The translations under genes were made by a program, and so were the position numbers. Shown piece by piece: positions 12,802-58,716 of a stretch of DNA of 60,390 nt. The stretch is from an uncultured Clostridia bacterium (GTDB taxonomy: Bacteria > Bacillota > Clostridia > TANB77 > CAG-508): NCBI GenBank assembly GCA_947629625.1, contig CANRES010000003.1, positions 1-60,390 of the forward strand. Reading direction: 5' to 3'. The stretch's first letter is position 1. Each line of letters opens with the position of its first letter. The notes beneath the pieces are model-generated. The model searched no databases. It had not been told where the DNA came from and saw only the letters and a program-made list of their open reading frames with translations.

Positions 12802-14163
12802 ATGGAGAAAAAAACAAAGAAAAGTATATTTAAAATAATAGTTTATTTATTAAATTTTATAGTAATTGCTATAATGTTAGTAAATATTTTTAATGCTTTT
12901 GTTATAAAGGAATGTGACGATGGTAGGTGGTATGATAAAAATGGTAATCTTTGTCGATATGATAATGAAGGCAATATTTGGAGGTATGATGCTGCTAGTA
13001 ATCTTTGGGAAAATTTAGAACCATTTAATTCAAAATTTACAGTATATGAGGGAAAATCAATAACAGGTTCTCAAATAAGACAATTAGTAAAAGTTGTTAA
13101 TGCAAATAATTTGCAGAATTTAGGAACAGACTTCATTGTTGAAATAACTGGAACAGAAATTTCTGGAAACATTGATAAAGGATATCAATTTAATGGTCGT
13201 AATTCACAAAAATATATAGTAGAAATTGAAAAACAAGATGGGGTAGTTAGTAATATTAATATTTATAATACAAATGATAATCAAAATAATGTTATTACTA
13301 ATAATATAAATGAAAAAAATATTGATAATATCACTAAAAATAAAGTTAGCTATAAAATAGATTCTAAAAGTGGAATAGCTAGTTTAATATCATATTTGCC
13401 AATAATTATTTTATATATTATAGTTATTGCATACAGAAAAATAAATAAAAAAAGAATTTCAAAGAAATATATAGGACAAGAAAATCAATATAGATTAGAT
13501 AAAACAAATAAAATATCATTAGTAGCATTTTTTATTATAGATATTTGTTTAATCATATATATTATATATAATTATATTATTGCTTTGGTTAATGTTTCTA
13601 CGATTTCAGTTGCTAAACCAATAATATACATATACCCAGAAGAAGTAACAGAAGTAACAGTGCAATTAGGTAAAAGTGAAAATTTAACTTGTACATATCC
13701 AATATATAAAGAAAAATGGGAAGTAACAGCAGAGCCAAATGGAACATTAAAAGATAACGAAACAGGAAAAACATATTATGCTTTATATTGGGAAGGAAAA
13801 AATATAAAAAAATATACAGATAAACTAAAAGATGGATTTATAGTAAAAGGAGAAGATACAGTTAAATTTTTAGAAGAAAAACTAGCAATATTAGGATTAA
13901 ATGAAAAAGAATCAGAAGAATTTATAATATACTGGTTACCAAAAATGCAAAATAATAAATATAACTATATAAGATTTCAAACACAAGAAGAAATAAATGA
14001 AAATATGCCATTAGAAATAACACCAAAACCAGAAACAATAATAAGAGTAATGATGGAATGGAAAGGCTTAAATGAATATGAAGATATAGAAGAACAAAAA
14101 TTAGAAAAAGTAGAAAGAAAAGGTTATACAGTAGTAGAATGGGGCGGAACAGAAATAAAATAA
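12802..14163 (+). CDS. hypothetical membrane protein
   Basis: N-terminal TM, W(R)YD repeats, two central TM helices, conserved-looking C-terminal domain. No family recognised. Confidence 0.6.
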   Translation: MEKKTKKSIFKIIVYLLNFIVIAIMLVNIFNAFVIKECDDGRWYDKNGNLCRYDNEGNIWRYDAASNLWENLEPFNSKFTVYEGKSITGSQIRQLVKVVNANNLQNLGTDFIVEITGTEISGNIDKGYQFNGRNSQKYIVEIEKQDGVVSNINIYNTNDNQNNVITNNINEKNIDNITKNKVSYKIDSKSGIASLISYLPIIILYIIVIAYRKINKKRISKKYIGQENQYRLDKTNKISLVAFFIIDICLIIYIIYNYIIALVNVSTISVAKPIIYIYPEEVTEVTVQLGKSENLTCTYPIYKEKWEVTAEPNGTLKDNETGKTYYALYWEGKNIKKYTDKLKDGFIVKGEDTVKFLEEKLAILGLNEKESEEFIIYWLPKMQNNKYNYIRFQTQEEINENMPLEITPKPETIIRVMMEWKGLNEYEDIEEQKLEKVERKGYTVVEWGGTEIK

Positions 14164-14185
14164 TAAAAAATGGAGGAAAAATAAA

Positions 14186-14677
14186 ATGAAGAAAAAAATT
14201 GTTATAATAAATGGAACAGGTGGAGTAGGAAAAGACACATTTATACAACAATGTCAAGAATTTGTAGAAATAAAAAACATTTCATCAGTAGATAAAGTAA
14301 AAGAAGCAGCGAAAATATTAGTAAACTGGAATGGAGAAAAAGACGAAAAAACAAGAAAATTTTTAGCAGACTTAAAAAAATTAAGCATAGATTATAACGA
14401 TGCTCCAATACAATATATAAAAAGCCAAGCAGACGAATTTAATGAAAACGATACACAACAAATAATGTTCATACACATTAGAGAAATAAGTGAAATAGAA
14501 AAAGTAAAAAAACTATTAAATGCAAAAACACTATTAGTAACAAATAACAGAGTAGAAGATATTTTATCAAACGAATCAGATGCAAATGTAAAAAAATATA
14601 ATTATGATTATTACATTGAAAACAATGGAACTATTGAAGAATTAAAAGAATTAGCAAAAAAATTTGTACAAGAATAA
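14186..14677 (+). CDS. P-loop kinase-like protein (dNMP-kinase-like)
   Basis: Walker A INGTGGVGKDT at the N-terminus, 163 aa. Confidence 0.5.
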   Translation: MKKKIVIINGTGGVGKDTFIQQCQEFVEIKNISSVDKVKEAAKILVNWNGEKDEKTRKFLADLKKLSIDYNDAPIQYIKSQADEFNENDTQQIMFIHIREISEIEKVKKLLNAKTLLVTNNRVEDILSNESDANVKKYNYDYYIENNGTIEELKELAKKFVQE

Positions 14678-24104: not shown

Positions 24105-25337
24105 ATGAATAAACCAGAATTACTTGCACCAGCAGGTTCATTTCAAAAAGCAAAAGTTGCTTTTCTTTATGGGGCTGATGCAATATATGTAGGAACTTCT
24201 TCACTTTCTTTAAGAAGTAGAGCAGATATTAATGACGACGATTTAGTAAAAACAATTAAATATGCTCATAATCTTGGAAAAAAAGTGTATGTTACAATAA
24301 ATATATTTGCTTGGGATGAAACTTATGAAGAAATTAGAAAACAAGCACGTATTTTAAATGAATTAAAAGTTGATGGTATAATTGCAGCAGATGGTGGAGT
24401 AATAGAAATTTTAAAAGAAGAAGCACCAGATATTGATATACATATTAGTACACAAGCAAATATTGTAGGGTATCATTCTAGCAATTTTTGGTATAAAAAT
24501 GGAGCAAAAAGAGTTATACTAGCAAGGGAATTAAATAAAAAACAGATTAAAGAAATAATAGATAATACCCCTGTTGGTTTAGAAACTGAAATGTTTGTAC
24601 ATGGTGCAATTTGTTTTGGATATTCAGGAAGATGTTTTTTAAGTGATTTCTTAGCATCTAGAAGTGCAAATTTAGGTGATTGTGCACAAAGTTGCAGATG
24701 GGCATATAATGTATATGTTGAAGAAGCTAATAAGCCGGGAAATTTAATGCCAGTTGAATATGATGATAAAGGAACTTACATATTTTCTTCAAAAGATTTA
24801 TGCCTTATAAAAGAAATTCCTGAAATTATTCAAATGGGTGTTGATAGTTTAAAAATTGAAGGAAGATTAAAAACTGAATACTATTTAGCAACAATTATTA
24901 ACGCGTATAGAAATGCAATAGACGATTATATTAAAGAGCCTGAAAAATATGATTATACAAAATATTTAAAAGAAATAGATAAAACTAAAACAAGAGGACT
25001 TACTACATTTTATTTTAATGATAGAAATAATAAAGATTTTCAAGAATTTGATGGAAAACAATATAATGCAGATTACGAATTTGGTGGGAAAGTAATTCAA
25101 TATAATGATGATAAATCCATTATTGAAATAAAAAATAAATTAAGTGTAGGTGATACATTAGAAATTATTATTCCAGGACAAATTGAAGTTTATAAATTTA
25201 TTATAAGTAATTTGTGGGATATTGAAACAGATGAAGAAATTGAATGTGTAAATCCTGGAAAATTAGGTCAGCAAGTAAAATTAAAACTTCCAATTAAATG
25301 TGAAGAAAATTGGATTTTAAGAAGAAAGAAAAATTAA
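24105..25337 (+). CDS. U32-family peptidase (TrhP/YrrN-YrrO-like)
   Basis: KPELLAPAGS N-terminus, Cys-rich CFGYSGRC..CAQSC segment, 410 aa. Confidence 0.88.
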   Translation: MNKPELLAPAGSFQKAKVAFLYGADAIYVGTSSLSLRSRADINDDDLVKTIKYAHNLGKKVYVTINIFAWDETYEEIRKQARILNELKVDGIIAADGGVIEILKEEAPDIDIHISTQANIVGYHSSNFWYKNGAKRVILARELNKKQIKEIIDNTPVGLETEMFVHGAICFGYSGRCFLSDFLASRSANLGDCAQSCRWAYNVYVEEANKPGNLMPVEYDDKGTYIFSSKDLCLIKEIPEIIQMGVDSLKIEGRLKTEYYLATIINAYRNAIDDYIKEPEKYDYTKYLKEIDKTKTRGLTTFYFNDRNNKDFQEFDGKQYNADYEFGGKVIQYNDDKSIIEIKNKLSVGDTLEIIIPGQIEVYKFIISNLWDIETDEEIECVNPGKLGQQVKLKLPIKCEENWILRRKKN

Positions 25338-25399: not shown

Positions 25400-25436
25400 A
25401 TTACAAAAATATTACAAATATTATTTTTTTATTACA
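25400..25436 (+). promoter_or_regulatory. ATTACA repeat array upstream of the peptidase operon promoter
   Basis: ATTACA at 25400, 25411 and 25431. The last copy is 19 bp upstream of the -35. Confidence 0.5.
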
Positions 25437-25449
25437 TTAGTTAAAAATA

Positions 25450-25479
25450 TTGACATATAAAGTCTAAAAAAATTATAAT
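25450..25479 (+). promoter_or_regulatory. sigma-A promoter of the DUF4190/peptidase operon
   Basis: TTGACA-18-TATAAT. Confidence 0.55.
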
Positions 25480-25517
25480 ATTTATAGAATTAATCTAAAG
25501 AAGAAGGAGTGTTTTTT

Positions 25518-25793
25518 ATGGACGAAGAAACAAAAGAAGTACAAGAAACAAAAAAAAGTAATAAGATAGGATTTAATATTACATCTATGATTTTAGGAAT
25601 AATTTCTATACTTATAGGATGTTTTATACCAATACTTCCACTAGTAGCATCAATTGTATCAATTATTTTTGGGATAATAGGAATAAAAGATTCTGGAAAA
25701 GGTATGGGAATTGCAGGAATAATTTGCAGTTCAATAGCAATAATAATGAATGCTTGCATATTACCAATTTATTTTTATATGATGTCTATGTAA
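25518..25793 (+). CDS. DUF4190-like small membrane protein
   Basis: Two Gly/Ile-rich TM helices (ILGIISILIG..GIAGIICSSIAIIMN). ATG follows GGAG. Confidence 0.6.
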   Translation: MDEETKEVQETKKSNKIGFNITSMILGIISILIGCFIPILPLVASIVSIIFGIIGIKDSGKGMGIAGIICSSIAIIMNACILPIYFYMMSM

Positions 25794-25808
25794 ATAAAGG
25801 ATAAAAAT

Positions 25809-27872
25809 ATGAAAAAATTAAATAAAATAATGCTAATTTTTCTTATGTTTGGAATAATATTTATGTTTAATGATTCAAAAGCAGTTAATATTAATGAAAA
25901 TTATTCAAATGCTTATGAAAAATGGTTAAATATACCTGATAGTGAAAAGCAAAATTATATTATGCCATCAATTTATACTACAAATTTAGAAGAGATTGAA
26001 TCAATTAATAATATTCAAGCATATGGAAATGATATACAATTACCTAAAAAATACAATTCAACAGAAAACTTAAATATGACTGTTAGAGATCAAGGAATAA
26101 CAAATTCATGTTGGGCTATTACATCAATAGAATTATTTGAAATTGCAAATGCTAAAAAAAATAATTTAAGTACGCCTGTACAATATTCTTCAAGACACTT
26201 GGATTATTCATGCAGTAGATATTTTTTGAACAATATTGAGAATATGCATGGATTTAATAGAAAAGTAGGTAATGGAGCAAATGTTAAAATAGGTATGGCT
26301 TATTTTGCAAGTGGAAAAGGTCCAATATTAGAAACAAGTATGCCTTTTCAAAATAATGTAGATTTAATTGACATTGCTGAAATTCAAAATAAAACAGTGG
26401 AAGCACAATTACGCGATTATATAGAATATCCAAATATATATAAAAGTTATGATGTAAATAATAATGTTACATATTCTAATGGAGAAAATTTAATATATAC
26501 AGAAGAACAAATTAAAAATTTTAGAAATATTGTAAAAAAACAAATAATGAAGACTGGTGCAGTAAGTTCTTTTACTTATGCTCCAAATAATAGAACAGAT
26601 TATAATTATTTTTCAAATGAAAATGGAAAAATATATGGAACATCATATTTCTGTAATAATGATAAACTAGCAGTAAATCATTCTATATGTATCGTCGGTT
26701 GGGATGATACTTATTCAAAAGATAATTTTAAAGAGAGTATAAAACCTGTACATGATGGTGCATATCTTGTATTAAATTCATGGGGAACTACTTGGAATCA
26801 ACTTGATGGATATTATTATATATCTTATGATGATTATTTTATTGAACAAATGCTATTTGGAATACAAAATATATCAGAAAAAAATTATGATAATATATAT
26901 CAATATGATGAATTAGGCAGTGATTTTAATGTAAGTTCAAGTAAAAGCCCAACAAAAATATATGGTGCTAATGTATTTAATAGAAAAACTATGTATAAAG
27001 ATATACTTTCAGATGTTGGTATTTATATTAATGATAACAATACAAGTGTAAAAATTTATTTAGACAATAGTGCAGAACGATTAGATAGTATAGAAGATAT
27101 GGAATATATAGGATGTGCAGATAATTTAACAACAGGTTACCATGTTATAAATATTGAAAAAACTATCTATTTGAACAGTACATTTGCAATTATTGTAGAA
27201 TTTTCGAAAGATGATTTAGCCACCTTACCTGTTGAAGCAAATTTTGCATCATTAGGTAAGGAAAATTTAAAAGTATTTTTCCATACTGCTTCTTCAAACC
27301 CAGGAGAAAGTTATATATCTGAAAATGGAATAGAATGGGAAGATATAACCACAAAATTACCTGATGCGAATATTTGTATAAAAGCTTTTACAAATAATTC
27401 AAGAATAATTGAAGAAGATTTTAGTTATATTAAAAATCCAAATTGGAAAATTATAGTGAAAAATAATATAAAAATGTTAACGGGTATAAATGAGAAAACT
27501 ACAATAAGCGATTTATTAGAAAAAGGAAATTATAAAAATGGATTTACAATAAAAGCATATAAAGATAACATAGAAGTTACAAATGGAGTTGTATCAACAG
27601 GTACAATAATTAAAGCATATTATGATACGGAATTACTTGAAGAATATACAGTTGTCATTTATGGAGATACATCAGGAGATGGAAATATTGCGTCAGTTGA
27701 TGCATTAAGTATAATAAAAAATAAATTAAAAACTGAATTATTTAAAAATATTATTTTTGAACAAGCGGGAAGAGTAACATTAAATACAAGAAATTCAGAT
27801 GATATTCCATCTGCTGTGGATGCTTTGGCTATAATAAAACATAAATTAAAATTAGAAAACATTTCACAGTAG
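25809..27872 (+). CDS. secreted C1-family (papain-fold, Cwp84-like) cysteine peptidase with C-terminal dockerin
   Basis: Signal peptide. Catalytic motifs QGITNSCWAI, NHSICIVGWDD and LNSWG. C-terminus reads YGDTSGDGNIASVDALSIIKNKL...NTRNSDDIPSAVDALAIIKHKL. Confidence 0.85.
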   Translation: MKKLNKIMLIFLMFGIIFMFNDSKAVNINENYSNAYEKWLNIPDSEKQNYIMPSIYTTNLEEIESINNIQAYGNDIQLPKKYNSTENLNMTVRDQGITNSCWAITSIELFEIANAKKNNLSTPVQYSSRHLDYSCSRYFLNNIENMHGFNRKVGNGANVKIGMAYFASGKGPILETSMPFQNNVDLIDIAEIQNKTVEAQLRDYIEYPNIYKSYDVNNNVTYSNGENLIYTEEQIKNFRNIVKKQIMKTGAVSSFTYAPNNRTDYNYFSNENGKIYGTSYFCNNDKLAVNHSICIVGWDDTYSKDNFKESIKPVHDGAYLVLNSWGTTWNQLDGYYYISYDDYFIEQMLFGIQNISEKNYDNIYQYDELGSDFNVSSSKSPTKIYGANVFNRKTMYKDILSDVGIYINDNNTSVKIYLDNSAERLDSIEDMEYIGCADNLTTGYHVINIEKTIYLNSTFAIIVEFSKDDLATLPVEANFASLGKENLKVFFHTASSNPGESYISENGIEWEDITTKLPDANICIKAFTNNSRIIEEDFSYIKNPNWKIIVKNNIKMLTGINEKTTISDLLEKGNYKNGFTIKAYKDNIEVTNGVVSTGTIIKAYYDTELLEEYTVVIYGDTSGDGNIASVDALSIIKNKLKTELFKNIIFEQAGRVTLNTRNSDDIPSAVDALAIIKHKLKLENISQ

Positions 27873-27899
27873 TAATGAAAGGAGAACAAAATTTTTATT

Positions 27900-29975
27900 A
27901 TGAAGATAAAAAAGATTTTACTTATTACTTTTTTCATGTTCTTTTTTATAATATTTTTTAATACTAATGCATATTCATTTAATTTAAATAACTCATTTTC
28001 AAATTTAGGTGAAGAATATTATTCAGAACAATTTAAAAAATGGCTTGCATTACCTGAAGAAGAAAAAAATAATTACATAATGCCTAATGTTTATACTACT
28101 AATTTAAATATAGAAAAAATTGCAGAAACTCAAAAAGATTTTTTTAGTAAAGAAGATATTCAAGCAAATGCTTCAAGTTTACCTGAAAAATATAATATAA
28201 AAGATAGTGTTAACATTAAAGTTAGAAATCAGAAGCAAACAGGATTTTGTTGGGCATTTGCAGCATCAAAAGTTTTCGAAACCACAGAAGCAAAATTAAA
28301 TAAAAAAGATACAATTACAGAATATTCACCAAGACATATGGTTTATGCAACAAGCAGATATTTTAAAGATAATGTAGAAAATCCAACTGGATTTAATTTG
28401 AATGTTGAAGAAGGTGGAAATTACTTTATATCATTAGCATATTATGCAAGTGGAAAAGGACCTATATTAGAAACAGATTTTCCATTTGTAAATTCAATGG
28501 ATAGAATAGATATTTCTCAATTGCAAAATAAACAAACACAATCACAAATAGAAAGTGGAGTATATTTAGGTGGAATATTTAAAAAATATTCATCAAATAG
28601 TATTACATATACAAATGGTGATGAAACAACTTATTCTAATGAAATTATTGAAGAATATAGAAATATTATAAAAACACATATAATGAAATTTGGTGCTCTA
28701 TCTACTATGACATATACTCCTACAAGTGAAGCTGATAATTATTATTCAGATGATTTTAATTCTTTTTATTGTAATAATGAGAATTTAAGTTCAAATCATG
28801 GAGTATGTTTAATAGGTTGGGATGATACATATTCAAAAACAAATTTTAAAGCAGGATGTCAACCATTAAGTGATGGTGCATATATAGCATTAAATTCTTA
28901 TGGAGAAGATTATAATGGTAATGGAGGATATTTTTATATATCTTATGATGATATTTTTGTAGAACAACTTTTATTTGGAATTCAAGATATATCAAAAAAA
29001 GATTATGATCATTTATATCAGTATGATGAATTAGGTTCAAATCCATTGGCAGCTATTTATAATACAATAAATAATAAAGAAATTTATGGTGCAAATTATT
29101 TTAAAAAGGAATCAAATAAAATAGAAAAGTTAAGTGAAGTTGGCTTATTTATTGAAACGTCATGCGATGTTACTATATATTTAAAAAATAATCCTTCTGA
29201 TTTAAATATTAAAGATTTACAACCAATTGCAACTAAAAAAGATTTACCTCATGGATATCATATTGTTAAATTAAACACACCAATAGAGGTTGGAAATAAT
29301 TTTGCTATAATAGTAAAATATTCAAATGATTTTATTGCAACATTACCAATTGAATCTAATTCTTTATATGTATTATATTGGGATACAGCAAAAGCAAATT
29401 CAGGAGAAAGTTTCTTTTCAATTGATGGTGAAAAATGGCAAGATATAACAAGTCAAGCTGGTAAAGAAAATGCTAATATGTGTATAAAAGCATTTACTAT
29501 AGAATCTAATGCAATATCTAATTCAAATTATATACAAAATTCAAATTGGAATATTTTAACCAATAATAATACAAAATTGCTAACAGGAATAGATATTGAT
29601 TCAACAATTAGTCAAGTATTATCTTCTTCAAATTATATAAGTGGATATACTGCAAAAGCATATATAAACGATGTAGAGGTAACAAGTGGAAAAATTACTA
29701 CTGGAACAGTTATAAAAATTTATAATGGTTCAAATATAGTTGATGAATATACTACTGTTATATATGGAGATACAACAGGTGATGGTAGTGTAGTTTCATT
29801 AGATGCATTAGTTATAATAAAAAATAAATTACAGACAGAAAAATTTAAAAATAATATTTTTGAACAAGCAGGAAGAGTAACATTAAATACAAGAAATTCA
29901 AATGGAGTTCCGTCAGCAGTTGATGCTCTTGCTGTTGTAAAATATAAATTAGGATTAGAAAAAATTACGCAATAA
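27900..29975 (+). CDS. secreted C1-family cysteine peptidase with C-terminal dockerin (tandem paralog)
   Basis: QKQTGFCWAFA, NHGVCLIGWDD and LNSYG. Dockerin reads YGDTTGDGSVVSLDALVIIKNKL...NTRNSNGVPSAVDALAVVKYKL. Confidence 0.85.
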   Translation: MKIKKILLITFFMFFFIIFFNTNAYSFNLNNSFSNLGEEYYSEQFKKWLALPEEEKNNYIMPNVYTTNLNIEKIAETQKDFFSKEDIQANASSLPEKYNIKDSVNIKVRNQKQTGFCWAFAASKVFETTEAKLNKKDTITEYSPRHMVYATSRYFKDNVENPTGFNLNVEEGGNYFISLAYYASGKGPILETDFPFVNSMDRIDISQLQNKQTQSQIESGVYLGGIFKKYSSNSITYTNGDETTYSNEIIEEYRNIIKTHIMKFGALSTMTYTPTSEADNYYSDDFNSFYCNNENLSSNHGVCLIGWDDTYSKTNFKAGCQPLSDGAYIALNSYGEDYNGNGGYFYISYDDIFVEQLLFGIQDISKKDYDHLYQYDELGSNPLAAIYNTINNKEIYGANYFKKESNKIEKLSEVGLFIETSCDVTIYLKNNPSDLNIKDLQPIATKKDLPHGYHIVKLNTPIEVGNNFAIIVKYSNDFIATLPIESNSLYVLYWDTAKANSGESFFSIDGEKWQDITSQAGKENANMCIKAFTIESNAISNSNYIQNSNWNILTNNNTKLLTGIDIDSTISQVLSSSNYISGYTAKAYINDVEVTSGKITTGTVIKIYNGSNIVDEYTTVIYGDTTGDGSVVSLDALVIIKNKLQTEKFKNNIFEQAGRVTLNTRNSNGVPSAVDALAVVKYKLGLEKITQ

Positions 29976-29997
29976 TTATTTTTATAACATTGTAAAT

Positions 29998-30036
29998 ATT
30001 ACATTTTTATTACGCAAACATTACAATATTATTACA
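29998..30036 (+). promoter_or_regulatory. four ATTAC(A/G) repeats phased at exactly 11 bp
   Basis: Copies start at 29998, 30009, 30020 and 30031. The last copy is 19 bp upstream of the -35, the same distance as at 25431/25450. Confidence 0.55.
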
Positions 30037-30049
30037 TTTTAAAAAAATA

Positions 30050-30078
30050 TTGATTTATATCAAAAAAAAGAGTATTAT
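30050..30078 (+). promoter_or_regulatory. sigma-A promoter of the cohesin/Big_2 gene
   Basis: TTGATT-17-TATTAT. Confidence 0.5.
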
Positions 30079-30115
30079 ATTAATAGATTTTGTAAAAAAG
30101 AAGGAGAAAAAACTT

Positions 30116-31819
30116 ATGAAAAAGATTATATCTTTAATTTTAGTAATTTCAATACTATTTGGAATGTTACCAATAGTAAAAGCAGCAACTGATACTATAA
30201 CATTAACAGCAAGTTCACAAAATGTAAATGTTGGTGGTACAGTTTCTGTAACATTAAAAGCATCTAAGGTTATACAATCAGCAGATTTTAATTTAAATTA
30301 TCCAAAAGATATTTTAGAATTAAAAGAAGTATCTATTTCAGAAGATAATTATAGTGTAAAAGATACACATGTACAAGTATGTTATGCAAGTAATTCAGGA
30401 ACAGATACATTTACTTTTACATTTAATGTATTAAAAGAAGGAAAAGCAACAATATCAACAACAATAGAAAAATTAAACATTGATACAACTACTGAATTTG
30501 AACATGATGGAGATAAAACAATAGAAATAACAGCAACAGCTGGATCATCAACAGTTGAAGTAACATCAGTAACATTAAACAAAACAGCATTAAATTTAGA
30601 AGTTGGAAAAACAGAAACACTAACAGCAACTGTTGAACCTACAAATGCAACAAATAAAACAGTAACATGGACTAGTGATAATACCGCAGTTGCTACTGTA
30701 CAAAATGGAACAATAACAGCAGTAAAAGAAGGAACTGCAACAATAACAGCAAAAGCAGGCACACAATCAGCAACATGTACAGTAACTGTAACTCCAAAAA
30801 CAACAGATCCTGATTCAAGTGGAGATGATGAGTTAACTTGGACAGATTTCTCAAATACTAAATTCGAAATAAAAAATGAAGGATTATTAAAAGTAAATTA
30901 TTATTTGTTGTTAGGAATAAGCGATGCTAAAACAATACCTGGACATGTTTATTATATGTTCTTTTCAAATTCAGACTCTGAAAGCATAGTAAATGTAGTT
31001 GCTTCATCACTTAGCACTATTACTAAAGTTAGTGGTGACGAAGGATTTAATGATGCTGGATACCAAGTACCTATGGATAAACATGAATTAAGTAATGATT
31101 TATATTTATATATTATTGAATTTCAAAATCCAATTTCAATAGATACTTTATTGTCATCACCATATAAAATTAATACAATAAAATTACCAAAATATCCTCT
31201 AAATCCTTTAGGAGATAGAATTAACGGTCATTTTAGGAATACTTCTACAGATATAGATTTAAATGAATACATGAGTACTGGAAGAAAACTAAACTTAAAA
31301 GTTGGCACAATAAATGATACAAATATATTGAACTCTATAAAAAATGGTGACAGTGATTGTCTATCTAAATTACTTACTTATGCTAAATCAGATAATGGTA
31401 TAATTACAAAATCATATACTAAAGATACAGATACTTCAGCTATTACTGATGACACATCAATTCGTTCTTTATATAATAATTGGACATCTGGCGGTTATTA
31501 TTATGTTTATATGGAATATGATGATGAAAATGGAAAATATAGAACTGTTGAAGATGTAAGTTTATATCAATGTTTACTTTATAACGCAAACGATACATGG
31601 GGATTATATGATTATCTTTCAGATGAGTTTAAATGGAATATAGGAAATGAAGGAAGTGTTCCTGATAAAGACACAACAGTTCCTGATAAAGATGATACAA
31701 CTTCAAATAAACCAATTCCACAAACAGGTGAAACAATGATTATCGTAACATCAATAATAGCAGTATTAGCTATTGCAATTGTATCAATTATAAAATATAG
31801 AAGATATAGAGATATATAG
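30116..31819 (+). CDS. cell-wall-anchored protein: cohesin-like domain + Big_2 Ig-like domain + unknown domain + IPQTG sorting signal
   Basis: Signal peptide MKKIISLILVISILFGMLPIVKA. Cohesin-like segment (SADFNLNYPKDILELKEV). Big_2 (VTSVTLNKTALNLEVGKTETLTATVEPTNATNKTVTWTSDN). IPQTGE + TM + RYRDI at 31715-31816. Confidence 0.7.
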   Translation: MKKIISLILVISILFGMLPIVKAATDTITLTASSQNVNVGGTVSVTLKASKVIQSADFNLNYPKDILELKEVSISEDNYSVKDTHVQVCYASNSGTDTFTFTFNVLKEGKATISTTIEKLNIDTTTEFEHDGDKTIEITATAGSSTVEVTSVTLNKTALNLEVGKTETLTATVEPTNATNKTVTWTSDNTAVATVQNGTITAVKEGTATITAKAGTQSATCTVTVTPKTTDPDSSGDDELTWTDFSNTKFEIKNEGLLKVNYYLLLGISDAKTIPGHVYYMFFSNSDSESIVNVVASSLSTITKVSGDEGFNDAGYQVPMDKHELSNDLYLYIIEFQNPISIDTLLSSPYKINTIKLPKYPLNPLGDRINGHFRNTSTDIDLNEYMSTGRKLNLKVGTINDTNILNSIKNGDSDCLSKLLTYAKSDNGIITKSYTKDTDTSAITDDTSIRSLYNNWTSGGYYYVYMEYDDENGKYRTVEDVSLYQCLLYNANDTWGLYDYLSDEFKWNIGNEGSVPDKDTTVPDKDDTTSNKPIPQTGETMIIVTSIIAVLAIAIVSIIKYRRYRDI

Positions 31820-31906
31820 TTAATCATATTAATAAAAGGGGACAGTAAAAGTAATTTTTACTATCCTTTTATTAATATAATATTTTTAAGGAGCAACTAA
31901 ATTTAT

Positions 31907-33421
31907 ATGATAAAAAATAAAAAAATTATTTTAGCATTAATATTAGTTATATGTTCAATAATATGTAGTCAATTAACAAGTATATTTGCAAATACGAATT
32001 ATATATTAAATAAAGATGATATTTCATACAAAGAAATCGATGATGAAAACATATTAATATCAGGTTTTAAAATTGGTACAACAGTTGCTGATATAAAAAA
32101 TGTAAATTCATTATATGAAAATTATAATATAGAAATATTTGATAATAATAATAACAATATAACTGAACAAAATAATTTAAAAATTGGAACAGGCTATTCA
32201 ATAAAAATTAATAAAGAAGTTAATAGTGAGGAAAATTCTACTCAATCTGAAAATACAATTACAAAAAACTGCAAAGTAGTAATCTATGGTGATGTAACTG
32301 GTGATGGAGATGTTGGTGCAGTAGATGCACTTGCTATAATAAAAAATAAATTAGAAACAACATTGTTTGAAAATGAAATATCAAAAGAAGCAGCAAAAAT
32401 ATTAGAAGAAACTAGAACTACTAACAAAACTCCAGCTTCTGATGATGCTTTGTATGTTATAAAACATAAACTTTACCCTAACGAATATCCAATTGATCAA
32501 AAAATGCCAAAAAAAGAAGATACAACACCAGTTAGCATACATGGAAAATTATCATTAAATGGAACAAATATTGTAGATAAAAATGGAAATAATTTTCAAT
32601 TAAAAGGTGTAAGCACACATGGAATTGCTTGGTTTCCTCAATATATAAATAAAGATGCATTTGAATTTATGAGAGATGAATGGGGAATAAATACAATTAG
32701 ACTTGCAATGTATTCGAATCCAAATGATGGTTATTCAAGAGAATTATGGAATACGGTTAAAAATGGTGTAGATTATGCAACAAATGCAGGAATATATGCA
32801 ATAATTGATTGGCATGTTTTGAATGAACAAAATCCTAATACATATAAAGAAGAAGCAATAGAATTCTTTAAAACAATGGCAGAAAATTATAAAGATAATG
32901 AAAATGTTTTATATGAGATTTGTAACGAACCAAATGGAAATGTAACTTGGTTAGGGGATATAAAACCTTATGCAGAAGAAGTAATTTCAGAAATAAGAAA
33001 AATAGATAATGATGCGATAATAATTTGTGGAACACCAAATTGGTCTCAATATGTTGACGAAGTTTCAAATAGTCCTATTGAAGATTATGATAATATTGTA
33101 TATACTTTACATTTTTATGCTGCAACTCATAAGCAAGATTTAAGAGATAGATTAACAACTGCACTAAATAATGGTTTACCAGTATTTGTTTCAGAATTTG
33201 GAATTTGTGATGCTTCTGGAAATGGTGCATTAGATGAAAATGAAGCAAATATATGGATAGATTTATTAAATGAAAATAATATAAGTTGGATATGCTGGAA
33301 TTTAAGTAATAAAAACGAATCTTCTGCAATACTAAATTCTTCAACAGATAAAACAACTGATTGGCAAGAAGAAGATTTATCTGAAACAGGTAGATGGTTA
33401 ATTGAAGCATTAAAAAAATAA
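31907..33421 (+). CDS. GH5 endoglucanase/glycanase with an N-terminal dockerin module
   Basis: Signal peptide. Dockerin VVIYGDVTGDGDVGAVDALAIIKNKL...TRTTNKTPASDDALYVIKHKL. GH5 motifs ICNEPNG and FVSEFG. Confidence 0.85.
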   Translation: MIKNKKIILALILVICSIICSQLTSIFANTNYILNKDDISYKEIDDENILISGFKIGTTVADIKNVNSLYENYNIEIFDNNNNNITEQNNLKIGTGYSIKINKEVNSEENSTQSENTITKNCKVVIYGDVTGDGDVGAVDALAIIKNKLETTLFENEISKEAAKILEETRTTNKTPASDDALYVIKHKLYPNEYPIDQKMPKKEDTTPVSIHGKLSLNGTNIVDKNGNNFQLKGVSTHGIAWFPQYINKDAFEFMRDEWGINTIRLAMYSNPNDGYSRELWNTVKNGVDYATNAGIYAIIDWHVLNEQNPNTYKEEAIEFFKTMAENYKDNENVLYEICNEPNGNVTWLGDIKPYAEEVISEIRKIDNDAIIICGTPNWSQYVDEVSNSPIEDYDNIVYTLHFYAATHKQDLRDRLTTALNNGLPVFVSEFGICDASGNGALDENEANIWIDLLNENNISWICWNLSNKNESSAILNSSTDKTTDWQEEDLSETGRWLIEALKK

Positions 33422-33455
33422 ATAATGATTAAAAATTGGAAGGAAATTTTATTAT

Positions 33456-33992
33456 ATGAAAAAACATATTTTTATAATTTTAATTATATCAGTATTTTTA
33501 ATTTTACTTAATGTTAATGTATTTGCAAAAACATTAGATATAAGTGTAATACCAAATAAAGAAAAAGTAGAAGTTGATGAAGAAGTAACAATTACAATTG
33601 ATTGGATAGATGGAATGCAGGCAGCAGATTTTTTTCTAAAATATGATAATACTAGATTTGAATTTGTAAGTATGGATATAGAAGATACATTTTACAAAAT
33701 AGACAATTCACAGATAGAAGTTGCTTGGGTTTCAATAGATAATGTAGATAAAACATCTATTCAAGCAACATTTAAAGCCTTAAAATCAGGAAAAGCAGAT
33801 TTTAATGTAGTAATTGATGGTGGTTTTGCTGATGCAGATGTTGTTAGACCAGATGATTATACAATTAATAATTCCTCTGTAAAAGTAAATGGAATATCAT
33901 TTGGAGAAATACTACCAATTATAATAGTTTTGGTTATAATAATTTTAATAATAATTATAGTTAAATTTAAAAAATCACAGGAGAAAAAATAA
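33456..33992 (+). CDS. cohesin-like domain protein with C-terminal TM anchor
   Basis: Signal peptide, GMQAADFFLKYDNTRFEFVS, C-terminal hydrophobic helix + KFKKSQEKK. Confidence 0.65.
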   Translation: MKKHIFIILIISVFLILLNVNVFAKTLDISVIPNKEKVEVDEEVTITIDWIDGMQAADFFLKYDNTRFEFVSMDIEDTFYKIDNSQIEVAWVSIDNVDKTSIQATFKALKSGKADFNVVIDGGFADADVVRPDDYTINNSSVKVNGISFGEILPIIIVLVIIILIIIIVKFKKSQEKK

Positions 33993-34735
33993 TGAGAAAA
34001 ATTGCTATATTATTTATTGCTATAATATTTTGTATATTTATATTGTCTAAACCAATATTAGCATATAACTTAGAATTAATTTTAAGTTCAGATAAAAATA
34101 ATGTTAAAATTGGGGAAGAAATAAATATTACATTAACTTTATCTAAGGGAATGCAAGCAGCAGATTTTACTATTAATTATGACAGTAATTTATTAAAATT
34201 TGAAAGTTCGTCATTAGGAAAAATGTTCTATAATACAAATGAACCGGGAAAAATTTCTTGTTCTTGGTTTGATACAAAAGATACCACAAGTTTTACTTTT
34301 AAATTTATAGCCATATCCTCAGGAACTGCAACTTTTACAACTACAACAGAAAACTTTTATGATGGAACATTAAAATCTGCAAATTCTTATAATGAAGGAA
34401 GTTTAAATGTAGTATTGTTATCTTCAACTGCCAATAATTTAACATTAAATAATAATAGTAATGATAATATCAATAATAATACACAAAATACTAATGTACA
34501 AAACATACAACAAGTAGAAGAATCTAAAAATACACAAGTAATTAATGAAAATAAATCAACAAGCACTAATGTTCAAAATTCAACAACATTAAGTTCAAAT
34601 TATTCTTCCGCTTCTGCAAATACAAATTTACCAAAGACAGGGGATAATAAATTACCATTTATTTTTATACTTTTAACATTAATCACCTTAGCAATAATTT
34701 TTAAAGTAAAATGGAATAAATTAAGAGATATTTAA
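33992..34735 (+). CDS. cohesin-like domain protein with LPKTG sortase signal
   Basis: Signal peptide, GMQAADFTINYDSNLLKFES, Asn-rich linker, LPKTGD (34628-34645) + TM + KLRDI. Confidence 0.7.
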   Translation: MRKIAILFIAIIFCIFILSKPILAYNLELILSSDKNNVKIGEEINITLTLSKGMQAADFTINYDSNLLKFESSSLGKMFYNTNEPGKISCSWFDTKDTTSFTFKFIAISSGTATFTTTTENFYDGTLKSANSYNEGSLNVVLLSSTANNLTLNNNSNDNINNNTQNTNVQNIQQVEESKNTQVINENKSTSTNVQNSTTLSSNYSSASANTNLPKTGDNKLPFIFILLTLITLAIIFKVKWNKLRDI

Positions 34736-34753
34736 TATATTTTAAATATCTCT
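34724..34753 (+). terminator. hairpin overlapping the stop codon of the last cohesin gene
   Basis: 11-bp stem AGAGATATTTA/TAAATATCTCT followed by ATTTTG. Confidence 0.45.
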
Positions 34754-34787
34754 ATTTTGTTGATAATTATATCATATTAACATAAAT

Positions 34788-34856: not shown

Positions 34857-35093
34857 ATGGTTATGCAACATGCACCTAGTAGCTTAAACAACTGGCATAA
34901 GACATTCGAGGAGGTGTTCAGATCATTACCAGTTCCATCTGAGAGCGATGCTCTTAGAATTTTAGACGAAATTAGAGATTGCCATAGGGTATCCGATGGT
35001 TGGGTAGAAGTTAATTGCGAAATTAAAAAACTTCCAACTGGTCAATATCAAGCAATTCGGCATCACGCAAAATATGCAAGGTATGCTATCTAA
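34857..35093 (+). CDS. alternative reading of the same unit: 78-aa hypothetical protein
   Basis: Open frame with weak, distant SD-like AAAGGA. Its G/C-ending codons are atypical for this genome. Confidence 0.25.
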   Translation: MVMQHAPSSLNNWHKTFEEVFRSLPVPSESDALRILDEIRDCHRVSDGWVEVNCEIKKLPTGQYQAIRHHAKYARYAI

Positions 35094-35200: not shown

Positions 35201-35905
35201 CTAATAATCTTCTTTAAAAGCCTTTTCTAATTTTCCTATTGCTTTGGTTTCAATTCTTGAAACATAACTACGACTAATTCCCATAATCTTTGAAATTTCA
35301 TTTTGTGTTTTAGGAGCATTGCCATCTAATCCAAATCTCATTTCAATAATAAATTTTTCTCTATCTTTTAAAGTATCAACCATTTTTTCGTATAAACGTT
35401 TAATTTTCATTTTTAAATCTAATTTATCTTCAATACTTTTTTCATCAGTTTCTAAAATTTCTAAAAGTGTAATTTCATTATCATCTTTATCTTTTCCAAT
35501 AGGTTCATTTAAATAAACTTCATTTTTAGTTTTCTTATTTGAACGTAAGAACATTAGAATTTCATTTTCAATACAACGAGCAGCATAAGTTGCAAGTCTT
35601 ATATTTTTCGAACTATTAAAACTATTAATTCCTTTAATTAAACCAATAGTTCCAATAGATATTAAATCATCTTGCTCAATATTTGTAGTGGAATATTTTT
35701 TACTAATATGTGCAACTAACCTTAAATTTCTTTCAATTAGTACATTTCTAGCCTCCTCATCACCAGTACTTAATCTTTCTAAATATATTTTTTCTTCCTC
35801 TGCACTTAATGGCTCTGGAAACAAATTACTACTTTGTATGTATCCAACAACAAAGATTGTAGAACGTAAAAAAGCCAAAAAACTAGATATTGAAAGAACT
35901 AACAT
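35201..35905 (-). CDS. sigK: sporulation sigma factor SigK (pro-sigma, uninterrupted)
   Basis: Pro-sequence then YIQSSNLFPEPLSAEEEKIYLERL..NLRLVAHISKKY. This resembles B. subtilis SigK (YVKNNAFPQPLS) more than SigE. Confidence 0.75.
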   Translation of the reverse strand: MLVLSISSFLAFLRSTIFVVGYIQSSNLFPEPLSAEEEKIYLERLSTGDEEARNVLIERNLRLVAHISKKYSTTNIEQDDLISIGTIGLIKGINSFNSSKNIRLATYAARCIENEILMFLRSNKKTKNEVYLNEPIGKDKDDNEITLLEILETDEKSIEDKLDLKMKIKRLYEKMVDTLKDREKFIIEMRFGLDGNAPKTQNEISKIMGISRSYVSRIETKAIGKLEKAFKEDY

Positions 35906-36741: not shown

Positions 36742-37801
36742 ATGTTAGATTTAGAAGAAAATAAACGCACACTAATTAATATAGAAAATAGAATAAATAG
36801 TATTGGAGATTCTCTTTGACTTACCTAAAATAAATAATGAATTAAAGCAGTTAGAAGCAAAAACAATGCAAGATGGATTTTGGAATAATCAAAATGAAAG
36901 CAATAAAATACTACAAGAAATAAAACAATTAAAAAATAAGCAAACAAAATATACTAATATAAAAAACAGTTTAGAAAACTTAAAAGAAATTAATGATTTA
37001 TTATTAATAGAAAATGACGAAGTATTAGCATCAGATTTAATAAAAGACACACACGAACTAGAAAAACAATTAACCAAATTTGAAATAGAAACATTATTAT
37101 CTGGAAAATATGATAGAAATAATGCAATAGTAACATTACATCCGGGCGCAGGAGGAACAGAATCACAAGACTGGGCAGAAATGCTATACAGAATGTATTC
37201 AAAATGGGCAAATAGTAATGGATATAGCATAAAGGAATTAGATTATCTTGAAGGGGAAGAGGCAGGTATAAAAAGTGTTACATTTCTTGTTAGTGGAGAA
37301 AACGCTTATGGTTATTTAAAATCTGAAAACGGCGTACATAGATTAGTAAGAATATCACCTTTTGATGCAGGAGGAAGAAGACATACATCATTTGCATCTG
37401 TTGAAGTTTTACCAGAAATAATAGAAAATACTGAAATAAATATAAATCCAGACGATTTAAGAATAGATACATATAGGGCATCAGGAGCAGGAGGGCAACA
37501 TATCAATAAAACAGATTCAGCAGTAAGAATTACACACATCCCAACTAATATTGTTGTAGCATGTCAATCTGAAAGGTCTCAAATACAAAATCGTGAAACT
37601 GCAATGAAAATGTTAATGTCTAAACTTGTTGATTTAAAAGAAAAAGAAGAAAAGAAAAAAATAAATGACTTAAAAGGAGAACAAATGGATATAGCATGGG
37701 GAAGCCAAATTAGGTCTTATGTATTTTGTCCATATACATTAGTAAAAGACCATAGAACAAATTTTGAAGTTGGTAATGTTCAAGCAGTTATGGACCGGTG
37801 A
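36742..37801 (+). CDS. prfB: peptide chain release factor 2 (programmed +1 frameshift at codon 26; C-terminus also disrupted by an extra C)
   Basis: ORF0 is MLDLEENKRTLINIENRINSIGDSL-TGA, continuing in the +1 frame as DLPKINNELK. SPF and GGQ motifs are present. The natural end is probably 37844. Confidence 0.92.
36805..36820 (+). promoter_or_regulatory. RF2 programmed +1 frameshift site
   Basis: Internal SD-like GGAG (36805-36808), then CTT TGA C at 36814-36820. Confidence 0.85.
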
Positions 37802-42667: not shown

Positions 42668-43735
42668 TTATAATTTTTTATCTGATAACAAATTTATTAA
42701 TCTAATATTTTTATATATTTTTTCTCTTCCAATTTTTTCAGATTTTAAAAGTCCAATTTCTTCTAACTGATTTAAGTAAGATGATGCAGTTAATCTTGTA
42801 ACACCACAAGTTTTCTCAATATAAGAAATTTTAGTATAAACTTCATAGAATAAACCTTCCAATAATTCTTTTGAATATATTTTAGGTAGTTTTGCTTTAA
42901 ATTCTTCTTTATATTTTTTAATTTCGTTTTGAATGTTTTCTATTAATTTAATTGTTTCTATAGATGTAATTTCGATGCCTTTTAAAATATATAAAATCCA
43001 ATCTTCAAAATTATTATTGTTTCTAACTTCACTAAATAATCTATAATATTCTTGTTTTGTTTGATTTATATATTTACTTAAATATAAAATAGGACTATCT
43101 ATTAGTTTGTTCAATACTAGATATAAAATATTTAAAATTCTTCCCGTTCTTCCATTTCCATCATAAAAAGGATGTATACTTTCAAACTGATAATGTATTA
43201 AACATACTTTTATTAATGGATCTATATTATCTTTATCATCATTAATGAAATCTTCTAAATTTTTTAAATATTCTATTATTTCTTGTTCATTTTGAGGAGG
43301 AGTATAAATAGTTTCTCCAGTAATTGAATTTTTAAGTTCAGTTCCTGGTAACTTTCTAATTCCATCATTATTGTGTTCAATAATACCTTGTATTCTAATG
43401 ATTGTATTTGTATTAATATAACCATCTTTTTTTATTTGTTCAAATCCACTCCAAATAGCATTTCTATAATCAACAACCTCTTTAGCATTTTCTTCTTTAT
43501 AACCACTTTCTGTAAGAACTTTATAAATGTCATCGTGAGTTGTAACTATGTTTTCAATAGCACTACTATCCTTAGCTTCATTTATAGTTACAGCATTAAT
43601 TAAAATATGCATATTTGGAATAGTATTTGCATATCCTTTTAATTCTGCTAATGCTCTTGAAGAAATGGTTAATTGTTCTAAAATTTTTTTAGTTTTTAAA
43701 TCAACATTTTTATATGGTAACATTTCTAATTTCAT
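42668..43735 (-). CDS. class II Fic-domain protein (AMPylase-type) with C-terminal wHTH-like region
   Basis: Fic motif HPFYDGNGRTGR. N-terminal inhibitory motif SSAIEN ((S/T)xxxE(G/N)). Confidence 0.88.
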   Translation of the reverse strand: MKLEMLPYKNVDLKTKKILEQLTISSRALAELKGYANTIPNMHILINAVTINEAKDSSAIENIVTTHDDIYKVLTESGYKEENAKEVVDYRNAIWSGFEQIKKDGYINTNTIIRIQGIIEHNNDGIRKLPGTELKNSITGETIYTPPQNEQEIIEYLKNLEDFINDDKDNIDPLIKVCLIHYQFESIHPFYDGNGRTGRILNILYLVLNKLIDSPILYLSKYINQTKQEYYRLFSEVRNNNNFEDWILYILKGIEITSIETIKLIENIQNEIKKYKEEFKAKLPKIYSKELLEGLFYEVYTKISYIEKTCGVTRLTASSYLNQLEEIGLLKSEKIGREKIYKNIRLINLLSDKKL

Positions 43736-50521: not shown

Positions 50522-51490
50522 ATGATAGAAAGAGAACAAAATCCTGAATTTTTGAATGAATTTTTAGATTATACAACAACAATATTAAATAAATCTCCAA
50601 ATACAATAAAAGAATACAATTATGACTTATATAATTTTTTAAAGTTTATAATGATACATTTAAAATTAACACCAGAAAAAGATATTACAAAAATAGACAT
50701 ATCAAATTTTGATATAGAAAATCTTAAAAAAATTAAATTAGCCGATATACATGCCTACTTATATTATTTAAAAAGTACATATAGTAGTAAGGCCGCAACT
50801 CTATCTAGAAAAACCTCAAGTATTAGGGTATTTTTTAAATATTTGAGAAAGTCAAATTTAATAGAAGTTAACCCTGCCCAGGATTTAGAAACACCAAAAT
50901 TAGATAAAAGGTTACCAAAATATTTAACTTTAGATGATAGTAAAAAATTATTAAATGTTGTTAATGAAGAAAAAAGAAATAAAGAAAGAGATTATGCTAT
51001 AATTACAATATTTTTAAATTGTGGAATACGTTTATCAGAACTAGTTGGAATTAATATAAAAAATATAAATTTTAGTGATTGTAAATTAAATGTTATTGGT
51101 AAAGGAAATAAAGAACGTACTATTTACTTAAATAAAGCATGTATGACTGCTATAAATAATTACTTAGAAGTTAGAAAACATGATGGTGTTAAATATGATG
51201 CAAAAGATGCTCTATTTTTAAGTGAACGTGGAGAACGAATTAGTAATAGAACTGTTCAATATATAGTAAAAAGAGAATTACAAAAAGCTGGCTTAGATAT
51301 AAATAAATTTTCTGTACATAAATTAAGACATACTGCTGCCACTTTAATGTATCAATATGGAAATGTAGATATTCGTGCTTTACAAGAACTTTTAGGTCAT
51401 GAAAGCATAGCAACAACTCAAATATATACACATGTTAATAATGAACAAGTTAGAAATGCAGTAGATAGTAACCCACTAGCTAATATTTAA
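50522..51490 (+). CDS. tyrosine recombinase (XerC/XerD family)
   Basis: Catalytic motifs GIRLSEL, HKLRHTAAT and LGHESIATTQIYTH. Confidence 0.85.
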   Translation: MIEREQNPEFLNEFLDYTTTILNKSPNTIKEYNYDLYNFLKFIMIHLKLTPEKDITKIDISNFDIENLKKIKLADIHAYLYYLKSTYSSKAATLSRKTSSIRVFFKYLRKSNLIEVNPAQDLETPKLDKRLPKYLTLDDSKKLLNVVNEEKRNKERDYAIITIFLNCGIRLSELVGINIKNINFSDCKLNVIGKGNKERTIYLNKACMTAINNYLEVRKHDGVKYDAKDALFLSERGERISNRTVQYIVKRELQKAGLDINKFSVHKLRHTAATLMYQYGNVDIRALQELLGHESIATTQIYTHVNNEQVRNAVDSNPLANI

Positions 51491-58685: not shown

Positions 58686-58716
58686 AAGTATATACTCCCT
58701 TTTAGATAATTTTAAT

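Follow-up and report, generated by a model that had tools for sequence, protein, structure and literature searches.

The window analysed here is the complete 60,390-bp contig CANRES010000003.1 of an NCBI metagenome-assembled genome (MAG) from an uncultured Clostridia bacterium, and the subject of this report is a cluster of seven forward-strand genes within it (25450-34735) that encodes enzymes with dockerin-like modules together with wall- or membrane-anchored proteins with cohesin-like modules. The genes, designated g0 to g6, encode in order a small membrane protein, two cysteine proteases, an anchor protein, a GH5 enzyme, and two further anchor proteins (Table 1). They are tightly packed, with intergenic gaps of 15-140 nt, and g6 begins on the last nucleotide of the g5 stop codon. 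The guanine-plus-cytosine (GC) content is ~25% for the contig and uniform at ~0.25 across the cluster, and the proteins of the contig are singletons or near-singletons in a collection of 15 billion proteins.

The cluster is flanked by a U32 peptidase gene (24105-25337) and a divergent sigma-factor gene (35201-35905, - strand). Farther out, the upstream neighbors include RelA, SpoIIP, PNPase, Cmk, and BipA, and the downstream neighbors prfB, YabQ, and Rho. The promoter-like site ahead of g0 is the sole instance of a 12/12 consensus match between 25300 and 35300, and no terminator-like site was found on the + strand within the cluster; the seven genes are thus likely to form a single transcription unit served by one strong promoter. 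Antisense open reading frames (ORFs) that lie wholly inside the cluster genes were treated as spurious. An earlier note on this DNA had described seven consecutive forward-strand genes amid housekeeping and sporulation genes, among them two secreted papain-fold peptidases, one GH5 glycanase, and three anchors with different endings. These elements are all in place, the three endings read exactly as it gave them, and the surroundings are of the kind it named. The order it proposed, three cargo genes followed by three anchors, does not hold, the true order being protease, protease, anchor, GH5, anchor, anchor. Its account of the individual genes also passed over the seventh, g0.

Table 1. Features of the cluster and their coordinates in the window (nt of the forward strand; protein positions are marked aa).
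Feature	Position	Strand	Description and evidence
Promoter-like site	25450..25479	+	TTGACA-18 nt-TATAAT, 12/12 consensus, ~40 nt upstream of g0
g0	25518..25793	+	Small membrane protein, 91 aa; AAGGAG ribosome-binding site, then ATG
g1	25809..27872	+	Secreted Cwp84-like C1A cysteine protease, 687 aa (Pfam, PDB match); leader, pro-region, Peptidase_C1 aa 80-341, lectin-like aa 363-528, X module aa ~535-612, dockerin aa ~611-687
g1 dockerin	27639..27869	+	First loop DTSGDGNIASVD canonical; second degenerate
g2	27900..29975	+	Paralogous Cwp84-like protease, 691 aa; same architecture as g1
g2 dockerin	29742..29972	+	74% identical to the g1 dockerin
g3	30116..31819	+	Long wall anchor; leader, cohesin (by hhalign), Big_2 (E 2.5e-16), ~270-aa domain, D/T/K-rich linker
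g3 cohesin	30185-30538	+	
g3 Big_2	30557-30784	+	
g3 ~270-aa domain	30821-31645	+	
g3 C-terminus	31715-31816	+	IPQTGE, transmembrane helix, RYRDI
g4	31907..33421	+	GH5 endo-beta-1,4-glucanase, 504 aa; leader, X module, dockerin, GH5 domain; Pfam Cellulase 232.5 bits, E 8.6e-69
g4 X module	31988-32224	+	
g4 dockerin	32264-32494	+	
g4 GH5 domain	32573-33316	+	
g5	33456..33992	+	Membrane anchor; leader, cohesin, C-terminal transmembrane helix, basic tail KFKKSQEKK
g5 cohesin	33531-33890	+	
g6	33992..34735	+	Short wall anchor; leader, cohesin, N/S/T/Q-rich disordered spacer
g6 cohesin	34064-34426	+	
g6 C-terminus	34628-34732	+	LPKTGD, transmembrane helix, KLRDI

The proteases of g1 and g2 match both Peptidase_C1 (E 1e-12 and 1e-9) and the lectin-like family Lectin_like PF18560 (E 2e-24 and 2e-23) above the Pfam cut-offs, a combination that identifies them as Cwp84-like C1A enzymes. 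They are 48% identical to each other, and g1 is 66% identical to a homologue (P0010) from a rabbit-gut MAG. Their only solved sequence relative is Cwp84 of Clostridioides difficile (4D59/4CI7, E ~1e-19), with which they align across both the catalytic and the lectin-like domain. The Cys and His of the active site correspond: the Cys of NSCW falls at the position mutated to Ala in the 4D59 crystal, and NHSICIVGWDD aligns with NHAVAIVGWDD. Q, C, and H are invariant across 19 homologues (alignment A6). Pfam finds no CWB2 domain in g1 or g2, whose C-terminus is occupied instead by an X module and a dockerin. Homologues of the C1 plus lectin-like protease (~30% identity) also occur in Methanosarcina, Methanolobus, and other archaeal MAGs (L076-L083, L086); they carry neither dockerin nor LPXTG anchor, so that the Cwp84-type architecture is spread across domains of life.

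The third enzyme, g4, matches the PDB endoglucanase 6GJF (E 2.7e-98), and its catalytic Glu motifs align with those of that protein (ICNEPNG with ICNEPNG, VSEFG with VTEWG). Its dockerin lies N-terminal to the catalytic domain, whereas those of g1 and g2 are C-terminal. In all three enzymes the dockerin is directly preceded by the ~80-residue X module, and an X profile built from the proteases matches residues 28-106 of g4 (26 bits, E 1.6e-6 against 5,106 ORFs). Since the X-dockerin unit is found at the C-terminus of proteases, at the N-terminus of a GH5 enzyme, and in a cohesin-X-dockerin (Coh-X-Doc) protein of a related locus (L003), it behaves as a portable targeting module.

The dockerin-like module common to g1, g2, and g4 is ~77 residues long. 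Its first repeat is canonical (YGD-T-S-GDG-N-I-A-S-V-D-ALxIIKNKL in alignment A3). In the second repeat, Arg or Lys replaces the first Asp, Thr replaces Asn, and five residues with a conserved TR...P are inserted; the second loop of g1, for example, has Arg at the first-Asp position and the five-residue insertion (TR..P.AVDAL). The helix of the second repeat is kept (VDALAxxKHKL). Against Pfam Dockerin_1 (PF00404), the modules of g1, g2, and g4 score 15.5, 20.7, and 20.2 bits, all below the cut-off of 22.9. More distant homologous proteases carry, at the corresponding C-terminal place, textbook dockerins with two repeats, to which the window modules align. As judged from their sequences, then, the window modules are dockerin homologues with one canonical Ca site, and not canonical type I dockerins, because they fall short of the profile cut-off and the second of the two EF-hand repeats that define that type is degenerate. 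The dockerin of the GH5 enzyme is of a distinct type in the window and in the related locus L007, but protease-like in L088.

The three anchor proteins each contain one cohesin-like segment of ~120 residues with a Q(A/S)ADF motif. That of g6 scores 27.6 bits against Pfam Cohesin (PF00963, cut-off 24.1 bits), g5 scores 18.4 bits, below the cut-off, and g3 gives no match. An AlphaFold2 model of g6 has a pLDDT of ~98 over residues 25-145; beyond these come the N/S/T/Q-rich spacer, which is disordered, and a helix at the end. When this model was compared with the PDB by Foldseek, the top seven matches were all solved cohesins (E 1.6e-8 to 7.6e-7; target-normalised TM-score 0.43-0.65), led by 2JH2, the NagJ/GH84C cohesin of Clostridium perfringens (E 1.6e-8), and followed by 5NRK, 4UMS, and 2XDH; the segment thus has the cohesin beta-sandwich fold. 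For g5 the assignment comes from its membership of a family alignment (A2), 45 of whose 66 aligned members match Pfam Cohesin at E <= 0.01. The N-terminal segment of g3, which is not in A2, matches the A2 profile by hhalign with 99.4% probability (E 1.9e-21).

A word-indexed search with the g6 cohesin returned one fragment only, and the family was therefore collected by exhaustive profile search. The profile of the window cohesins matches 497 proteins at E <= 1e-3 among 1.84 billion cluster representatives; most are single-cohesin proteins of 170-300 residues, and some resemble multi-cohesin scaffoldins. A profile of the three segments matches solved cohesins weakly but consistently. Scanned over six frames of the 60 kb, module-specific hidden Markov models (HMMs) recover the three dockerins and the three cohesins of the cluster and no further segment of either kind at E < 0.1. 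The cohesin HMM applied to the related loci was built from domain columns only and is clade-specific, so that it misses distant cohesins, which were checked by Pfam and hhalign. Confinement of a three-by-three set of modules to one cluster is more than would be expected by chance. These results bear out the earlier note where it assigned one cohesin-like segment to each anchor and proposed profile and fold comparison as the check: g6 passes both. Its two-segment dockerin-like module shared by the three enzymes is likewise present, although atypical and below the Pfam cut-off; the profile check that it proposed for dockerins succeeds with a clade-only profile of nine sequences, which matches the CelS dockerin 1DAQ and other solved dockerins (E 3e-5) over the first repeat only.

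The anchors differ in how they end. LPXTG-type endings can be read in g3 (IPQTGE) and g6 (LPKTGD), of which g6 scores above (16.6 bits) and g3 below (14.2 bits) the cut-off of 15.9 bits for TIGR01167 LPXTG_anchor; g5 has no sortase motif at its C-terminus. The endings of g3 and g6 are kept in the related loci L003, L007, and L088, and orthologues of g5 in the same three loci are 49-83% identical to it. Full-length g3 as a query drew mostly Big_2 proteins, among which only two true orthologues stood out (P0121 and P0129; 76% and 61% identity). The start of g3 is most likely the ATG at 30116, which stands behind a GAAGGAG ribosome-binding site; a TTG at 30050 was considered and disfavored. The ~270-residue domain of g3 (residues ~236-510) has no sequence match in Pfam, NCBIfam, or the PDB. 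It recurs in L064 (8833-10482), in a 550-residue IPQTGV-anchored protein that lacks a cohesin and lies beside a self-anchored protease, and for this reason it may constitute an independent surface module associated with proteases.

The same gene set lies between the U32 peptidase and sigma-factor genes in two related loci, L006/L007 (rabbit-gut MAG GCA_947625545.1) and L003/L004 (metagenome contigs). The L087 locus, also on a metagenome contig, occupies the same chromosomal position, and in L088 the gene set is retained but rearranged. A mobile-element or horizontal-transfer origin was rejected because the GC content is uniform and the syntenic position is fixed in relatives. The cargo differs between loci: there are one or two proteases (tandem pairs occur also in L003 and L087), and GH5 is either present or replaced by a Coh-X-Doc protein. 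L003 is a case of replacement, as it has the Coh-X-Doc protein and no GH5, yet keeps two proteases and all three anchors. In three genomes the gene directly behind GH5 is that of the membrane-anchored cohesin, which is the sole hint as to pairing. The three anchor types, with their characteristic endings, are retained across the related loci. Cohesin identity between genomes is 70-86% for the g6 type, 49-83% for the g5 type, and 31-83% for the g3 type, as against 22-39% between lineages; this difference indicates that the three cohesins represent old, non-redundant paralogues. The small protein g0 has a weak, sub-threshold Pfam match to DUF4190. It is 50% identical to an 83-residue ORF upstream of the protease in L006, the closest relative and the only one with g0; no counterpart is present in the L003 and L087 loci.

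A survey of one genome per GTDB species yielded 80 loci with homologous proteases, which were classified by one uniform rule. Nearly all come from uncultured gut Clostridia (rabbit, Hadza, chicken 'Candidatus Scatovivens', Clostridium sp. CAG:343), with distant copies in Methanosarcina. We counted as a neighbor any adjacent LPXTG-anchored, non-protease ORF of 150-450 residues, limits that the L007 anchors just miss. Such a neighbor accompanies the dockerin-bearing proteases at 19 of 26 loci, but none of the proteases with an LPXTG-type anchor of their own (0 of 32 loci; Fisher p = 7e-10, uncorrected for phylogeny); it is also absent from the 22 loci whose protease has neither dockerin nor LPXTG anchor. 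Ten of the neighbors were scanned with Pfam Cohesin, which four pass and one matches below threshold. By hhalign against the window-type cohesin family, 10 of the 19 reach a probability of at least 65%. The remaining neighbors, of IPYTGV type, reach 71% as a group profile and are probable cohesins, although this profile has no significant cohesin match by sequence in the PDB. In this protease family a dockerin plus an anchored neighbor alternates with an own LPXTG anchor, so that the pairing of cohesin and dockerin most likely takes the place of direct attachment to the wall. No other result presented here speaks as strongly for a role of the pair in holding the protease on the wall.

Together, these data lead us to regard the locus as probably a self-contained, operon-like system that tethers enzymes to the cell surface by cohesin-dockerin pairs. 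One strong promoter would drive all seven genes, and the six large products would be exported by way of Sec-type leaders. The three single-cohesin proteins would then differ in their attachment to the envelope, with g5 held in the membrane by its C-terminal transmembrane helix, g6 linked by sortase to peptidoglycan through LPKTGD behind a disordered spacer of ~65 residues, and g3 attached through IPQTGE behind a long stalk of Big_2 and the ~270-residue domain. The proteases, which are probably zymogens, and the GH5 enzyme would plug their X-dockerin cassettes non-covalently into these cohesins, so that the enzymes would stay on the producing cell at different envelope depths. Since only the first Ca2+ loop of the dockerins is canonical, an asymmetric binding in a single orientation is predicted. 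The data show the domain identities, the cohesin fold, the anatomy of the dockerins, the synteny, and the association in genomes of dockerin proteases with anchored cohesin neighbors, and from there we infer physical binding, the pairing of dockerins with cohesins, sortase processing, and the biological role; the role would most likely be the digestion of extracellular protein and of beta-glucan at the cell surface. Where the earlier note spoke of a small cell-surface proteolytic complex rather than a cellulosome, the second part is upheld by the window, which has only single-cohesin anchors and one carbohydrate-active enzyme, and by L003, which does without GH5. The word complex overstates the case, because mono-cohesin anchors tether single enzymes and form no multi-enzyme particle.

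Several observations weigh against this reading. The three dockerins score below the Pfam cut-off, and their second Ca loop is degenerate, so that canonical dockerins are no sure guide to what they do. As single sequences, the cohesins of g5 and g3 also fall below the curated Pfam cut-off, and the AlphaFold2 model of g3, made from a three-sequence alignment, is poor outside Big_2 (mean pLDDT 53.5) and does not reveal a cohesin fold. About half of the small anchored neighbors in distant relatives are only weakly cohesin-like, and the survey statistic takes no account of shared descent. The Sec-type leaders were judged by eye only, and no sortase is encoded among the ORFs of at least 120 residues in the window.

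Some of these points would also be expected if the modules did not interact at all, the cohesin folds being immunoglobulin-like stalks or adhesins, the dockerin-like EF-hand a Ca-dependent stabilizing tail, and the two mere neighbors. Most modules lie under Pfam thresholds, the second dockerin repeat is degenerate, and the Foldseek list for g6 includes weaker matches to non-cohesin beta-sandwiches (BslA, a reeler domain, CLIPPER). Non-interaction is nevertheless highly improbable in our view, since it leaves unaccounted for the strict association of dockerin proteases with anchored cohesin-type neighbors that self-anchored homologues lack, and the movement of the X-dockerin cassette between unrelated domains; furthermore, the best fold and profile matches are to cohesins of proven binding. 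If the modules do interact, the system could be a minimal cellulosome, with a tethered GH5 acting on plant beta-glucan or cellulose and the proteases as accessories for turnover or for defence against host or plant proteins. The closeness of g4 to characterized endo-1,4-beta-glucanases and the herbivore or fiber-rich guts from which the relatives come (rabbit, Hadza MAGs) fit such a role, and a single cohesin-dockerin pair has been reported to boost cellulase activity in Cellulosilyticum lentocellum (PMC13487519). The window, however, contains no multi-cohesin scaffoldin, no carbohydrate-binding module, and one dockerin-bearing carbohydrate-active enzyme (CAZyme), and what is conserved in the absence of GH5, as in L003, is the protease pair with its three anchors. 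Distant relatives whose flanks were examined likewise conserve a dockerin protease followed by a small LPXTG protein, often with a recognizable cohesin, and we consider the cellulosome interpretation quite improbable.

The purpose of the tethered proteases is a separate matter. With the same anchoring, they might mature or shed surface or surface-layer (S-layer) proteins of their own cell, as Cwp84 acts on SlpA in C. difficile. This is a serious alternative, if on balance an unlikely one, because of the homology to Cwp84, the nearest solved structure, with which the lectin-like domain is shared, and because of the fixed core-genome position among housekeeping genes, which is unlike that of a typical accessory nutrient locus. 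The protease family is, moreover, nearly always associated with the wall, through a dockerin or LPXTG here and through CWB2 in Cwp84. On the other hand, the window encodes no SlpA-like or CWB2 proteins, the sequence identifies no substrate, and both the joint display with an endoglucanase and the presence of two protease copies accord at least equally well with nutrient acquisition. We continue to favor a surface-tethering system whose most likely role is digestion, most simply for nutrition.

Non-cellulosomal cohesin-dockerin systems are established, for example in C. perfringens (PDB 2JH2, 2OZN). The NagJ/GH84C cohesin of that organism is the best structural match to the g6 cohesin and ranks among the best matches by sequence profile, and the two systems share single cohesins and a low-GC clostridial host; the C. 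perfringens cohesins are carried by enzymes and link secreted enzymes, whereas those of the window are carried by dedicated sortase or membrane anchors. C. difficile Cwp84 owes its wall attachment to three CWB2 repeats. It resembles g1 and g2 (4CI7, 4D59) in its C1A and PF18560 domains, catalytic Cys and His, N-terminal pro-region, and cell-surface location, and the position of its CWB2 repeats is taken by X-dockerin in the window proteases and by an LPXTG anchor in 32 other relatives.

A close parallel is the amylosome of Ruminococcus bromii, in which the sortase-anchored single-cohesin protein Sca2 binds the dockerins of peptidases (PMC4611034). Like the window lineage, R. bromii is a gut Firmicute with a non-cellulosomal system, a mono-cohesin sortase protein proposed as a general surface anchor, and dockerins on peptidases that include a cysteine protease (PMC4611034). 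Its main cargo, however, is GH13 amylases, and its dockerin genes are scattered over the genome (PMC4611034), whereas in the window Cwp84-type proteases dominate, the genes for the cargo and for three anchors are grouped in a single compact, syntenic cluster, and the dockerins have a degenerate second repeat with an X module before it. Dockerin-bearing peptidases also belong to two systems of cellulosome-like type, in the Limousia mucinolysome, which has 3-6 of them (PMC12997984), and in Ruminococcus flavefaciens, where RflaF_05439 carries an X-dockerin dyad on a protein of NlpC/P60 cysteine-peptidase fold, as opposed to the C1A fold of the window proteases (PMC3573020). Both organisms have sortase-anchored scaffoldins, as the window has sortase-type anchors, but theirs are multi-cohesin, with dozens of CAZymes and peptidases in the minority (PMC12997984, PMC3573020). 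ClcC and ClcD of C. lentocellum are, like the window genes, reduced and adjacent, with a single cohesin or dockerin each; they join cellulases and enhance cellulose hydrolysis, and have neither protease cargo nor three anchors (PMC13487519). Within a literature coverage that was incomplete, no paper was found that ties Cwp84-type proteases to dockerins or describes a protease-centered locus with three anchors. What is new here is that the cargo is of Cwp84 type, that a single protease family has exchanged its anchor modules, that three anchors are conserved as a set, that the X-dockerin cassette has only one canonical Ca site, and that most modules are missed at standard Pfam thresholds.

More elaborate variants are present in other MAGs of gut Clostridia (L026 4637-12811, L032 341-8292, L065 4952-12924, L036 5237-13890). 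They encode a dockerin protein of ~1,200-1,300 residues with C1-like segments, an adaptor of ~300 residues with a cohesin and a dockerin, a further protease with a dockerin, and a cohesin protein with an LPXTG anchor, which suggests two-tier assemblies built around proteases.

Some other features of the contig merit description. Between g6 and the sigma-factor gene lies a 78-residue, cytoplasmic-looking ORF (34857-35093), with ORFs of similar size at this place in L001 and L006; it probably does not belong to the display system. The sigma-factor gene itself, of the sigma-70 family, directly follows the locus in L003 and L006 as well and has a hydrophobic N-terminal extension of ~30 residues that resembles the pro-sequence of the sporulation factors sigma E and K. 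In prfB, which encodes release factor 2 (36743-37801), the frame-0 ORF from the ATG at 36743 ends at CTT TGA C (~36812-36818), directly after GGAG, with the main ORF resuming in frame +1; this programmed +1 frameshift is a classic feature of the gene. DNA polymerase I is split (54678-57384, - strand) into a 212-residue 5'-3' exonuclease ORF and a 581-residue polymerase ORF, separated by ~320 nt. The exonuclease ORF ends ...NIPGIPRNRRKNCIKFNKKI, which resembles a frameshifted GIPGIGEKTA motif; the gene could be a pseudogene or truly be divided in two, or the assembly could be at fault. The cumulative GC skew peaks at ~42 kb, where the coding strand turns from + to -, as would be expected of a terminus of replication. 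The region could alternatively be an inserted island, because genes for a Fic protein (42668-43735), an Eco57I-type methylase (46336-48531), and a tyrosine recombinase (50522-51490) lie nearby, together with stretches of 19-22% GC. No Pfam family is matched by four ORFs within 12802-14677 and 57387-60156, of 453 and 163 residues (+ strand) and of 432 and 479 residues (- strand); the 432-residue product is clearly a polytopic membrane protein.

Cohesin-dockerin systems are usually sought as markers of fiber, starch, or mucin degradation. Here the conserved cargo is a Cwp84-type protease, and the socket in the window lineage is a single-cohesin wall or membrane anchor. Because the three dockerins and two of the three cohesins lie below Pfam thresholds, metagenome surveys based on these models, such as the UHGG screen, which counted 4,333 MAGs encoding both cohesins and dockerins (PMC12997984), would under-count systems of this kind. 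The protease family offers a natural experiment in which one surface enzyme changes its anchoring among CWB2, LPXTG, and dockerin, and the cluster provides a small, defined three-by-three set of partners for the study of cohesin-dockerin specificity with an unusual one-Ca dockerin. A wider view is possible, though doubtful: the whole clade of low-GC uncultured gut Clostridia might use cohesin-dockerin pairing not for polysaccharides but as a general, core-genome route for mounting Cwp84-family proteases, with the anchor swapped repeatedly among CWB2, LPXTG, and X-dockerin, the three ancient, non-redundant cohesin anchors serving three depths (membrane, inner wall, and outer stalk), and the one-Ca dockerin forming a new specificity class that is missed at Pfam thresholds. 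Surface-tethered cysteine proteases of gut commensals may, in turn, matter for the turnover of host protein or mucin.

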